The notes beneath the pieces were generated by a model. That model saw nothing but the letters and a program-made list of their open reading frames with translations. It ran no database searches and was not told the DNA's origin. From NCBI GenBank assembly GCA_018238625.1, contig JABCSY010000010.1, forward strand, positions 1 to 62,551: a DNA stretch of 62,551 nt. The letters are read 5' to 3'. The position numbers and the translations under genes were made by a program. Positions 216-6,299 of the stretch are shown one piece after another (the stretch's first letter is position 1; every line of letters starts with the position of its first letter). This DNA is from Promethearchaeota archaeon. GTDB lineage: Archaea; Asgardarchaeota; Lokiarchaeia; Sigyniarchaeales; SOKP01.

Positions 216-1001
216 ATGGCAAAAATAATAGATATTAATGAGGAAAATATTGATGAGCTAGAGTTATTTTGTAAAAAAACAAAAAAGAAATTAGTTGGTT
301 ATCAAAATAAAGTGAAATGGATAAAAGAACGTTTTAAGGAAGGATTAAAATATAAATTACTTATAGTAAAGGAAAACAATAAAGAAACTTCTCGGGGTAT
401 GATAGAATACATTCCAGGTGAATATAATTGGCGAGGTATCCAAGCTAATGGTTGGATGGTCATTCATTGTCTATGGGTAGTTGGAAAGCATAAAAAAAAA
501 GGTTATGGTTCAAATCTTCTGCAAGAAAGTATTAAGGACGCAAAAAAAGCAGGAATGCATGGAGTAGTAGGCATGTCGGCGGATAAAGGAGGCTGGACTC
601 CAAAAACGAAGATATATTTAAATAATGGATTCGAAAAAGTAGATGAAATAAAACCATATTTCGGATTGTATGCCAAAATTTTTAATGATAAAGCGTCTAA
701 ACCAAAGTTTTATCCCATTTCAGATAATAAGGTAGAAGAATATCGTAAAGGAGTACATATTTTATACACTGACCAATGTCCTTACATAGTTGATCTAGTT
801 GACGAATTAGAAAAAGAATCTGATAAGAAGAACGAATCGTTGAATATAATTAAATTAGAAAATTGTAGAGAGGCTCAACAGAATGGCGTCCATCCTTATG
901 GAACTTATTGTATAGCTTGTAATGGAGAATTATCACTGTATAAACATACAACAAAAAAAGATATTCTTGCATTTTTAAATAAGGAAAGAGAAGAGATGTA
1001 A
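216..1001 (+). CDS. GNAT-family N-acetyltransferase, YoaP-like
   Basis: GMIEYIPGEYNWR, IHCLWVVGKHKKKGYGSNLL acetyl-CoA motif, YTDQCPY. Start placed at ATG 216 after GAGGTGA Shine-Dalgarno rather than 114. Confidence 0.85.
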   Translation: MAKIIDINEENIDELELFCKKTKKKLVGYQNKVKWIKERFKEGLKYKLLIVKENNKETSRGMIEYIPGEYNWRGIQANGWMVIHCLWVVGKHKKKGYGSNLLQESIKDAKKAGMHGVVGMSADKGGWTPKTKIYLNNGFEKVDEIKPYFGLYAKIFNDKASKPKFYPISDNKVEEYRKGVHILYTDQCPYIVDLVDELEKESDKKNESLNIIKLENCREAQQNGVHPYGTYCIACNGELSLYKHTTKKDILAFLNKEREEM

Positions 1002-5055: not shown

Positions 5056-5138
5056 AATTCCCACTTAATTTTATAAATTTTATAAAAAGATTTTTAATAT
5101 GTATAATGAGATATATATGAATTTAAAATAATATAAGT

Positions 5139-5312
5139 GTGATAAAAATTAAAAAAAATGGAAAAATATTCATTGCTATTATTATCGTAGCACTGGTTAT
5201 TACTCTTGGTATTATCATCTCTGTAGCAGTCGATAATCTAATCCCCACAGATATCAACGGAGGGGGATGATCTTGCTCAGCTATCTTTTATCAGAAAATA
5301 TTTCTAACCTAA
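5139..5312 (+). CDS. Putative small single-TM selenoprotein (57 aa, in-frame UGA at 5268-5270); 43-aa membrane peptide if UGA is a stop
   Basis: GTG start; MIKIKKNGKIFIAIIIVALVITLGIIISVAVDNLIPTDINGGG-[TGA]-SCSAIFYQKIFLT-TAA TAA TAA; SECIS-like hairpin follows. Not in ORF track. Confidence 0.55.
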
Positions 5313-5322
5313 TAATAAAATA

Positions 5323-5364
5323 AAGGATGACTTTTACGAAAAAATTATAGTCGTAAAATGACTT
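5323..5364 (+). promoter_or_regulatory. Candidate eukaryote-like SECIS element
   Basis: AUGAC (5327-5331), 8-bp perfect helix UUUUACGA/UCGUAAAA, loop starting AAAAA, then UGAC (5359-5362), giving the tandem G.A/A.G core; lies 15 nt after the stop of a UGA-containing ORF. Confidence 0.55.
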
Positions 5365-5501
5365 ACCCCGCAAGGGTAAAAAGAAAAAAAATAATATAGT
5401 ATGAAATAGTATGAAATATTAATTAGTTTATTAATTAACAAAATTCTTTTAAGTGCTCAAAACCTCTTAAATTGCGCGATTTTGTTTAATGGTGTAAAAA
5501 A

Positions 5502-6299
5502 ATGTCACATGAAACTCCCGAGAAAGTTAAAGAATCTCTACGTTCGATTGGTTTAACGGATTACGAGATATCAATATATTTAACTTTAATTTCAAAAGGA
5601 CCTATGGACGCGAGAGAGCTTTCTGAAGCCTCAAAAGTTCCATATTCCCGAATTTATAACATTTTAACTCAATTAGAAAAAGATAAAATGTGGATTTTAA
5701 AAGAGGAAGAATCAAGACCGTCGAGATATTTTGCAAAAAGCCCTGATGAAGCTTTGGTAATCGCAAAGAAACAATACAGCGATAGTTTTGACGGGTATTC
5801 AGACATAATTATTCGTGCTCTTACGCCCATTTACGAATCTCACGATACTCCGATAAAAGTTGCTTTATATATTCATCGGGGAAGAGATGTTTGTATTAAT
5901 AGAGGTTTATCTATAATAAATACAGCAAAAATGGCCCTATACTTTGTCACACAAGATTACGAATTTTTAGATGTGTTTTACGAGGAAATAAAAAAAGCAA
6001 GAGCTCGAGGAGTCACAGATATTAGACTACTAGTCGAAGAAGTAATAATAAAAGACAAAAAATTTAGAGAAATCCTTGATAAATACGCTCAAATCGCTGA
6101 AATTCGTTCCCGTGATCAAATTTTTGGGACTAGCTTGGTAATGGACGAAGGTGAAGACGCCTTTATAATTTTGACACAAGACATTTTTAAGAAATTATCT
6201 TATTTTGGCGTTATGGCCGATCATATCGCTTTTGGACCAGCTAGCAATTATTATTTTATGTATTTATATAATACGGCTGATGTAGTTAAATTAAAATAA
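5502..6299 (+). CDS. TrmB family transcriptional regulator
   Basis: LRSIGLTDYEISIYLTL...ARELSEASKVPYSRIYNILTQL...RPSRYFAKSP, plus C-terminal effector domain. Confidence 0.9.
   Translation: MSHETPEKVKESLRSIGLTDYEISIYLTLISKGPMDARELSEASKVPYSRIYNILTQLEKDKMWILKEEESRPSRYFAKSPDEALVIAKKQYSDSFDGYSDIIIRALTPIYESHDTPIKVALYIHRGRDVCINRGLSIINTAKMALYFVTQDYEFLDVFYEEIKKARARGVTDIRLLVEEVIIKDKKFREILDKYAQIAEIRSRDQIFGTSLVMDEGEDAFIILTQDIFKKLSYFGVMADHIAFGPASNYYFMYLYNTADVVKLK

Follow-up and report, generated by a model that had tools for sequence, protein, structure and literature searches.

In Lokiarchaeota, selenoprotein genes such as those encoding HdrA-VhuD, VhuU, a peroxiredoxin-like (Prx-like) protein and SelD are described, in the sections of PMC4989117 and PMC11227280 that deal with them, as carrying a type I selenocysteine insertion sequence (SECIS) just after the stop codon. 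The account of the Lokiarchaeal element given in the first of these papers (Mariotti 2016) lists an AUGA motif, a 9-bp stem, an 11-nt loop and then GA (or AA), placed close behind the stop, with the first five loop nucleotides mostly A and the last an invariant G, usually preceded by A; a lower helix is not among the defining features in that description. The family list of the same paper comprises five Lokiarchaeal selenoprotein families, and the SECIS-first program employed there is reported to have come up with no additional candidate from the Loki assembly. In the corresponding list of Huang 2024 (PMC11227280), for which more than 400 Asgard genomes were searched by homology to known families, seven families appear, and the list of a 2026 review (PMC13188914) counts eleven archaeal selenoprotein families; the families in these two lists were recognized mostly through their homology to known ones. 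The locus that is the subject of the present work lies at positions 5139 to 5379 of a 62,551-nt stretch of DNA (the window) from a Promethearchaeota archaeon, which constitutes contig C7 (JABCSY010000010.1, positions 1 to 62,551, forward strand) of a 4.29-Mb assembly (GCA_018238625.1) with 32% G+C and 201 contigs. It is very probably a complete and previously unannotated selenoprotein gene with its own 3' recoding signal, and comparison with its relatives indicates that it is a member of a new conserved family that employs the already known Loki-type SECIS.

The recoding system, including a type I SECIS just after the stop, is shared with the Lokiarchaeal genes named above, and the presence of a second hairpin is shared with the VhuD elements of the same genus. 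What distinguishes the locus from these genes is its predicted product, a 57-residue membrane protein for which no Cys-form relatives were found and which is unrelated to the seven Asgard and eleven archaeal families in the lists of PMC4989117, PMC11227280 and PMC13188914, as well as the absence of a lower helix from the SECIS of the window copy. The small membrane protein itself does not appear in those three family lists, although supplementary tables might hold the locus as an unassigned candidate, and a full-text literature search, judged by title and abstract, yielded no paper on an Asgard transmembrane selenoprotein.

The gene occupies a 437-nt gap between a minus-strand gene for an FAD-dependent oxidoreductase and a plus-strand gene for a TrmB-family regulator (Table 1). 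It had been put forward in an earlier, sequence-only reading of the window as an open reading frame (ORF) with a basic N-terminus, one transmembrane (TM) segment, a GGG motif before an in-frame TGA at 5268, an open frame beyond that codon and three TAA codons at its end, and all of these parts were found as described. A Lys-rich, basic N-terminus is followed by a single long hydrophobic run and by GGG before the TGA, after which the frame continues as Ser-Cys-Ser and ten further residues, up to 5309; two extra TAA codons follow the stop, giving a three-TAA run at 5310-5318. Taken together with established knowledge of archaeal selenocysteine (Sec) insertion, the parts of the gene suggest a recoding mechanism in which translation would start at GTG 5139 and run for 43 codons to the UGA at 5268, which would be decoded as Sec by Sec-tRNA(Sec) and the archaeal EFSec under the direction of the downstream Loki-type SECIS; 13 further codons would then be read before termination at TAA 5310. 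The resulting 57-residue protein would consist of a basic cytoplasmic N-terminus, one TM helix, an acidic Gly-rich linker that ends in GGG-Sec-Ser-Cys, and a hydrophobic C-terminal helix.

The presence of a eukaryote-like SECIS in the 3' untranslated region, as claimed in the sequence-only reading, is borne out both by the published features and by an independent covariance model. The element at 5327-5361 displays every feature listed for the Lokiarchaeal SECIS in the description of PMC4989117. Its stem joins 5331-5339 with 5351-5359, and since Watson-Crick pairs occupy eight of the nine positions and a C.U the lowermost, the helix is perfect, as had been stated, only above its lowest position. 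The 11-nt loop (5340-5350) begins with five A and ends in AG. The AUGA, whose presence had been correctly noted, lies 56 nt downstream of the UGA; its distance had been given as 15 nt after the TAA run, and is in fact 14 nt behind the first TAA, the stop of the ORF, and 8 nt behind the third. The second hairpin reported after the SECIS is likewise present and conserved. An equivalent hairpin stands right after the GA-C in the HdrA-VhuD SECIS elements of the genus, and it can thus be regarded as belonging to the SECIS module of the genus.

Conservation of the element was assessed through a MAFFT alignment of 20 downstream regions of the family, in which 91% of the cells of the SECIS stem are paired and the AUGA on the 5' side of the stem is invariant (20/20). 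A non-standard bottom pair occurs in 14 of the 20, as well as in the VhuD and Prx-like elements of the genome. Four of the nine stem pairs change on both sides in a compensatory manner, with G-C replaced by A-U in eight sequences and C-G by U-A in five, and the covariation score of the stem was reached by none of 500 shuffles. An Rfam scan of the window returned nothing at gathering thresholds, and only chance-level small RNA matches were obtained within 5060-5510; since nothing was matched at this element, the Rfam SECIS models are blind to Loki-type elements. A more elaborate layout can be recognized at the HdrA-VhuD loci of the genus (L094-L123) and at loci L038-L053, where the SECIS takes the form of a three-part module composed of a lower helix, the AUGA/GA stem-loop and the second hairpin, the latter being inserted ahead of the 3' strand with which the lower helix closes.

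The whole genome was screened on both strands with a strict SECIS pattern, which identified nine sites, five of them with at least eight of nine stem positions paired. Three of these five stand 1-12 nt behind plain selenoprotein genes (two for VhuD/MvhD and one for a Prx-like protein with an in-frame TGA), and the remaining two are the window element and an orphan on contig C201. A covariance model, R1, was built exclusively from SECIS elements behind the Sec-form HdrA-VhuD pair at 27 of 30 loci of the same genus, with the small membrane family excluded and the second hairpin included; a Pfam FlpD search was of no use for gathering the training loci, as it retrieved Cys-form MvhD genes for the most part, and a search with the Sec-form VhuD was employed in its place. 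When run against the whole genome, R1 gave six matches of 40.6 to 80.1 bits, the next best reaching 18.9 bits. The window element (C7:5319-5380) scored 48.2 bits, with a genome-wide E-value of 1.2e-7 that lies well outside the range of chance, and is thereby on par with the Prx-like element on C88 (48.3 bits). The other matches were VhuD elements on C32 (80.1 bits; a member of the training set) and C200 (45.6 bits), the element of a VhuD paralogue on C119 whose stop codon overlaps the AUGA (43.3 bits), and the C201 orphan (40.6 bits). Four of the six are thus found directly behind genes with Sec codons that encode VhuD or Prx-like proteins, and these known-context elements span 43.3 to 80.1 bits, above a noise level of at most 18.9 bits. 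Scoring of the hairpin with a model derived from HdrA-VhuD elements of the genus, a check that had been suggested together with the original proposal, therefore identifies it as a SECIS.

The same model recognizes the SECIS behind all 39 genus loci of the small membrane family that were scanned, with scores of 31 to 55 bits. It misses four elements of another genus (g18), at which the pattern script finds perfect 9-bp stems. A further SECIS-like hairpin, with AUGA, a 9+11+9 arrangement and GA and a loop that does not start with A, was seen on contig C47 (near G000:C47 position 3591; L060 ~792-830, plus strand), 8 nt behind an ORF in which a Cys is followed by two in-frame TGA codons side by side; it emerged from a loose pattern scan and has no R1 match.

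The second line of evidence is provided by the relatives of the small ORF. A six-frame search with the 57-residue reading retrieved TGA-spanning matches, each with exactly one in-frame TGA, from many genomes of the same genus. A profile built from 20 family members (A1) gave full-length, single-TGA matches in 36 of 42 home-genus genomes, and two divergent members bring this count to 38; completeness is 81-88% in the four genomes that gave no match. With a wider profile (A5) run over 400 genomes of the phylum, TGA-bearing members were found in five genera besides the home genus (g1, 38/42 genomes, including the two added members), namely g28 (35/54), g18 (4/5), g20 (1/1), g21 (1/6) and g29 (1/7). 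All six genera belong to one taxonomic family, and in none of 266 genomes outside that family was a TGA-bearing member detected, A5 matching there the hydrophobic helix only. Two apparent full-length matches that lacked a TGA (in genomes G227 and G134) turned out to be unrelated larger ORFs.

The identity of the genus orthologues to the window copy is only 28-65%, and the Sec column is nevertheless occupied by TGA in all 36 aligned orthologues and in all examined members of the other genera; the conserved TGA that the sequence-only reading had led one to expect was found throughout, never replaced by TAA or TAG. In the genome as a whole, ORFs of at least 300 codons end in TAA (1306), TAG (241) or TGA (198), the latter thus accounting for 198 of 1745 or 11%. 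Such an invariant TGA in a genome where TGA is a rare terminator argues that the codon is not an ordinary stop. In all 36 orthologues, a basic N-terminus leads into a single hydrophobic helix, which a linker of acidic or polar character connects to a run of two to five Gly. The frame beyond the TGA, whose conservation had also been foreseen, is kept in every one of them together with a Cys, which is located two residues after Sec (U-x-C) in 24 orthologues and four residues after it (U-P-x-x-C) in 12, and is followed by a short hydrophobic tail. In 18 phylogenetically independent pairs, the pN/pS ratio amounts to 0.57 upstream of the TGA and to 0.64 downstream of it, which indicates constraint that is moderate and equal on both sides, and codon position 2 is the least variable in either part.

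The terminal stops of the 36 orthologues are TAA in 18, TGA in 17 and TAG in one; those 17 terminal TGA codons stand a few nucleotides from the SECIS and are evidently not recoded. At L130, L131, L134 and L136 (genomes G009, G019, G017 and G062), the terminal stop of the ORF is the UGA of the AUGA core of the SECIS, so that coding sequence and recoding signal abut. Beyond the genus, 18 loci were inspected, in which the Sec motif is variable, taking the form of Cys-Gly-Sec, of Sec-Gly-Cys, or of Sec and a single Gly or Cys followed by the stop. The pattern script detected a 9+11+9 SECIS at 17 of these 18 loci, the remaining one (L039) being matched by R1 at 54 bits, and many of these elements possess a lower helix that encloses both hairpins.

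The protein collection holds 68 entries of the family (P0002-P0069), most of them 47 residues long and none with Cys at the Sec position. Among 13 database sequences that were read, nine stop at the Gly run and four, from short contigs, have the TGA translated as Trp; the entries are named 'hypothetical protein' of Promethearchaeota or Lokiarchaeota metagenome-assembled genomes, and twice 'NqrC'. The proposal of a 57-residue selenoprotein with a UxC motif that had been missed by gene calling is therefore well matched by the data, in that TGA, Cys and frame are conserved and the databases hold forms cut at the TGA. Pfam searches with 20 and with 23 members, at E-values up to 10, returned only sub-threshold noise from the membrane helix, and no SelK or SelS family.

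Decoding of the UGA would require a Sec machinery, and the components that had been named for verification, tRNA-Sec (as a candidate), EFSec and SepSecS, were all located in the genome. The SepSecS gene scores 437 bits on TIGR03531, and the best family of the EFSec gene is selB, at 238 bits (just below the cut-off of 242), vs 149 bits for EF-Tu. A gene for a KTI12/PSTK-like kinase is present, as is a SelD gene with an in-frame TGA and a type-II-like SECIS behind it. The candidate tRNA-Sec (L058:4774-4926 (+) = G000:C107:14173-14325) is located ~220 nt upstream of SepSecS and ~3 kb from EFSec, which lies on the opposite strand. Its anticodon is UCA, its acceptor stem measures 9 bp, its discriminator base is G and its variable arm is long, and it folds as a 9/4 cloverleaf once insertions of ~28 nt in the D-arm and ~31 nt in the T-loop are removed. 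Its Rfam score of 28 bits, vs a cut-off of 47 bits, may be due to these two insertions; a 31-nt T-loop intron is described for the tRNA-Sec of Lokiarchaeum in PMC4989117, whose section on the Sec machinery does not mention a D-arm insertion. With ARAGORN, neither a tRNA in the window nor a tRNA-Sec in the genome was detected, and the three best Rfam tRNA-Sec matches were rejected as ordinary tRNAs with Arg, Gly and Leu anticodons. The Pfam eEFSec domains PF21131 and PF21208 have no match in the genome, a result that is uninformative because none was obtained in any of 14 control genomes either.

Table 1. Positions of the predicted selenoprotein gene, its parts and its conserved neighbour in the window
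Feature	Position	Strand	Remarks
A/T-alternating, TATA-like box	5110..5119	+	20-29 nt upstream of GTG; identified by eye
Predicted selenoprotein gene	5139..5312	+	57 codons (5139-5309); GTG start; Sec = codon 44; TAA stop 5310-5312
Predicted transmembrane helix, residues ~8-34	5160..5240	+	AlphaFold helix; uncharged hydrophobic run in all members
In-frame TGA, putatively read as selenocysteine	5268..5270	+	Invariant TGA in orthologues
Cys codon, Sec+2 (U-x-C)	5274..5276	+	Cys behind Sec in 36/36 genus orthologues
Loki-type SECIS core	5327..5361	+	AUGA 5327-5330, GA 5360-5361; matches description in PMC4989117; R1 48.2 bits
Second hairpin	5363..5379	+	Directly after GA-C; conserved in family, 79% of cells paired
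TrmB-family regulator gene	5502..6299	+	PF01978 and PF11495; conserved downstream neighbour

The box upstream of the GTG could possibly serve as the promoter of a leaderless or short-leader mRNA, and A/T-rich boxes are found at a comparable distance upstream of the small ORF in its relatives. The upstream neighbour varies between loci, being a FGGY kinase, an FAD oxidoreductase or a radical SAM gene. The TrmB gene, on the other hand, lies downstream on the same strand at 19 of 20 loci with 1.5-kb flanks (the exception, L018, ends at a contig start) and at 16 further genus loci, at a distance of ~160-190 nt from the small ORF; no such gene was observed next to paralogues or to family members from other genera. 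Public sequencing runs holding part of the stretch number 20, of which 19 are recorded as DNA and one as a metatranscriptome. The metatranscriptome contig, of 222 nt and depth 2, covers 5256-5472 with 25 differences from the window, and must consequently come from a related strain; these differences include a compensatory pair in the SECIS stem, 5336 A>G with 5354 T>C. The contig is weak evidence for, and agrees with, a transcript that comprises the SECIS and the 3' part of the gene in that strain.

AlphaFold modelling of the protein, based on a 20-row alignment, gave a mean predicted local distance difference test (pLDDT) value of 68.5. Residues 8-34 form a confidently predicted helix (pLDDT 88-90 over the block), residues 35-46 a low-confidence loop that holds the Gly-Gly-Gly-Sec-Ser-Cys motif, and residues 47-56 a short helix. 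Charges flanking the TM helix were counted by eye on the alignment of the 36 orthologues: at least two Lys/Arg residues precede the helix directly in all of them, and in 35 no Lys or Arg is found between helix and Sec, a linker in which Asp, Glu and Asn predominate. Together with the positive-inside rule, the basic N-terminus predicts that this end is cytoplasmic and that Sec lies outside, where it would be exposed on the external side of the cytoplasmic membrane. Selenylsulfide redox centres are usually built from a Sec whose partner Cys stands two or four residues away. Sec and Cys could thus form a redox-active selenol/thiol (selenylsulfide) centre, allowing the protein to act as a small tethered reductant, a scavenger of peroxides or disulfides, or a ligand of soft metals; a membrane-tethered, extracytoplasmic role in selenol/thiol redox chemistry or soft-metal binding is tentatively favoured on account of this pattern, with somewhat less than even probability.

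The architecture of the protein had been described as reminiscent of SelK and SelS, and the comparison is a mixed one. In the description of SELENOK and SELENOS consulted in PMC10650576, the two proteins are characterized by an N-terminal TM helix, by a segment in which Gly, Pro and positive charges abound, and by a Sec that is the penultimate or antepenultimate residue, with the C-terminal part in the cytoplasm. The small Asgard family has in common with them the single N-terminal TM helix and the Gly before Sec. Its linker, however, is acidic, spans only ~10 residues and holds a run of two to five Gly, instead of being long, Pro-rich and basic; the Sec of the window copy is residue 44 of 57, the 14th from the end, a position second or third from the end being reached only in members of two other genera; and its C-terminus is predicted by the positive-inside rule to lie outside the cell, in the reverse orientation. 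The likeness is therefore real as regards architecture, where the single TM helix and the Gly before Sec stand, but it does not extend to sequence similarity, to the basic Gly-rich segment or to the predicted orientation, and family membership is not supported. It is quite unlikely that the family represents a prokaryotic form of the SELENOK/SELENOS type, with an architecture that predates eukaryotes. A basic segment, one TM helix and a Gly/Cys-rich tail are also found in PF12669 (FeoB-associated Cys-rich membrane protein), which matches one of 20 family members at an E-value of 6.5, a value that does not establish homology, and in L153, L154 and L155, from genomes of another Asgard family. 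The latter are single-pass membrane proteins of ~110 residues, with a start in which a basic segment precedes the helix and many spaced Cys in the tail; the profile match to them (E ~1e-5) is confined to the TM helix and a G-C-C motif, and they may be Cys-based analogues of the small-selenoprotein architecture.

A number of observations weigh against the interpretation of the locus as a selenoprotein gene. The evidence for a Sec-containing product stands at the level of sequence rather than protein, and the constraint on the peptide is no more than moderate, with pN/pS ~0.6 on either side of the TGA. Cys-for-Sec homologues, the search for which had been proposed as a check, were encountered neither in six-frame profile searches of 400 Asgard genomes nor among the 68 database relatives, and such an absence is unusual for selenoproteins. 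No lower helix (helix I) underlies the SECIS core, the flanks being A-rich on both sides and non-complementary, whereas VhuD elements and small-membrane-family members of another genus do possess one. The window copy is, in addition, atypical. It starts with GTG instead of ATG and its N-terminus is shortened: a close database relative has an ATG two codons upstream of the GTG position, where the window has ATA, and ~10 N-terminal residues of most orthologues are missing. In comparison to close relatives it also has a 1-nt deficit near the end of the ORF, which places the TAA run in frame and costs the tail four to eight residues. The difference is not an assembly error, as two independent studies have yielded DNA contigs identical to the window over the small-ORF stretch, and helix, Gly-Sec-x-Cys motif and SECIS are intact in this copy. 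The neighbourhood offers no functional clue other than the TrmB regulator, support for expression is weak, consisting of the single low-depth contig from a related strain, for which DNA carry-over is possible, and both membrane orientation and the redox or metal function have been inferred.

These observations leave room for three other explanations. The small ORF could mainly be a selenium-sensing leader (an upstream ORF), in which termination or read-through at the UGA sets the expression of the TrmB gene. Such a role would account for the presence of that gene downstream, on the same strand, in every genus locus with enough flank, for its conservation far above that of the small ORF (83-94% identity over the first 46-93 residues in 16 loci), and for the lack of an oligo-T terminator behind the hairpins on the plus strand. 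Neither the members from other genera nor the second copies found in the home genus, however, are adjacent to TrmB, and the basic-TM-Gly-Sec-Cys layout, which a mere leader would not need, is kept across six genera, all of which makes an essentially regulatory ORF improbable. The two roles are not mutually exclusive, and since TrmB is constant within the genus and absent beside members elsewhere, there is a small chance that the selenoprotein gene has an additional, selenium-dependent leader role.

It is more improbable still that the TGA is the plain stop of a membrane peptide of 43-47 residues, followed by a hairpin that serves RNA stability or termination. Public annotation does end the product at the TGA, and both the failure to find a Cys homologue and the nature of the support for the Sec form, noted above, are compatible with such a peptide; yet the codon never departs from TGA, in a genome where TAA or TAG terminates 89% of the long ORFs, it is followed by a conserved Cys and an open frame, and an independent model cannot tell the element from SECIS elements of proven context. 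Finally, the region could give rise to a non-coding RNA with a SECIS-like decoy, the ORF being incidental, since ORFs arise easily in a short, AT-rich region and the antisense strand of this one also holds an ORF of 44 codons. The peptide features are, however, maintained at 27-66% identity through conservative replacements and in-frame indels, and variation is least at the second codon position before and after the TGA, rendering this explanation extremely improbable. A selenoprotein gene equipped with a Loki-type SECIS thus remains the preferred interpretation of the locus.

The orphan on contig C201 deserves a separate description. It consists of an ORF at L059:797-910 (minus strand) and a SECIS at L059:702-764 (minus strand), together corresponding to G000:C201:62201-62409. 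The ORF encodes a Zn-ribbon of 37 codons with two CxxC pairs, its last sense codon being a TGA that is directly followed by TAA or TAG, and the Loki-type SECIS (40.6 bits with R1) lies ~40 nt downstream. Of the 42 genus genomes, 33 contain the ORF, and each of the 12 loci that were inspected retains the TGA, the next stop and a SECIS whose stem shows compensatory changes. It can be considered a candidate microprotein with a C-terminal Sec. At least two orphan families emerged from a SECIS-first start. Asgard archaea probably possess a hidden repertoire of micro-selenoproteins that is invisible to homology-based surveys.

The small membrane family adds to the known selenoproteins a putative family without known relatives and, as far as the literature searched shows, would be the first membrane-anchored archaeal selenoprotein. 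Its identification illustrates that a SECIS-first scan can recover genes that annotation pipelines cut at the UGA. Moreover, with ~80 natural variants of the Loki-type SECIS combined with a very short ORF, the family offers a handy minimal cassette for the study of how archaeal EFSec and eukaryote-like SECIS elements recognize each other. Asgard archaea are the archaeal lineage closest to eukaryotes, and the superficial likeness to SELENOK and SELENOS makes the origin of that eukaryotic family testable; if the relationship were true, this architecture, which occurs here alongside a eukaryote-like SECIS, would be older than eukaryotes.

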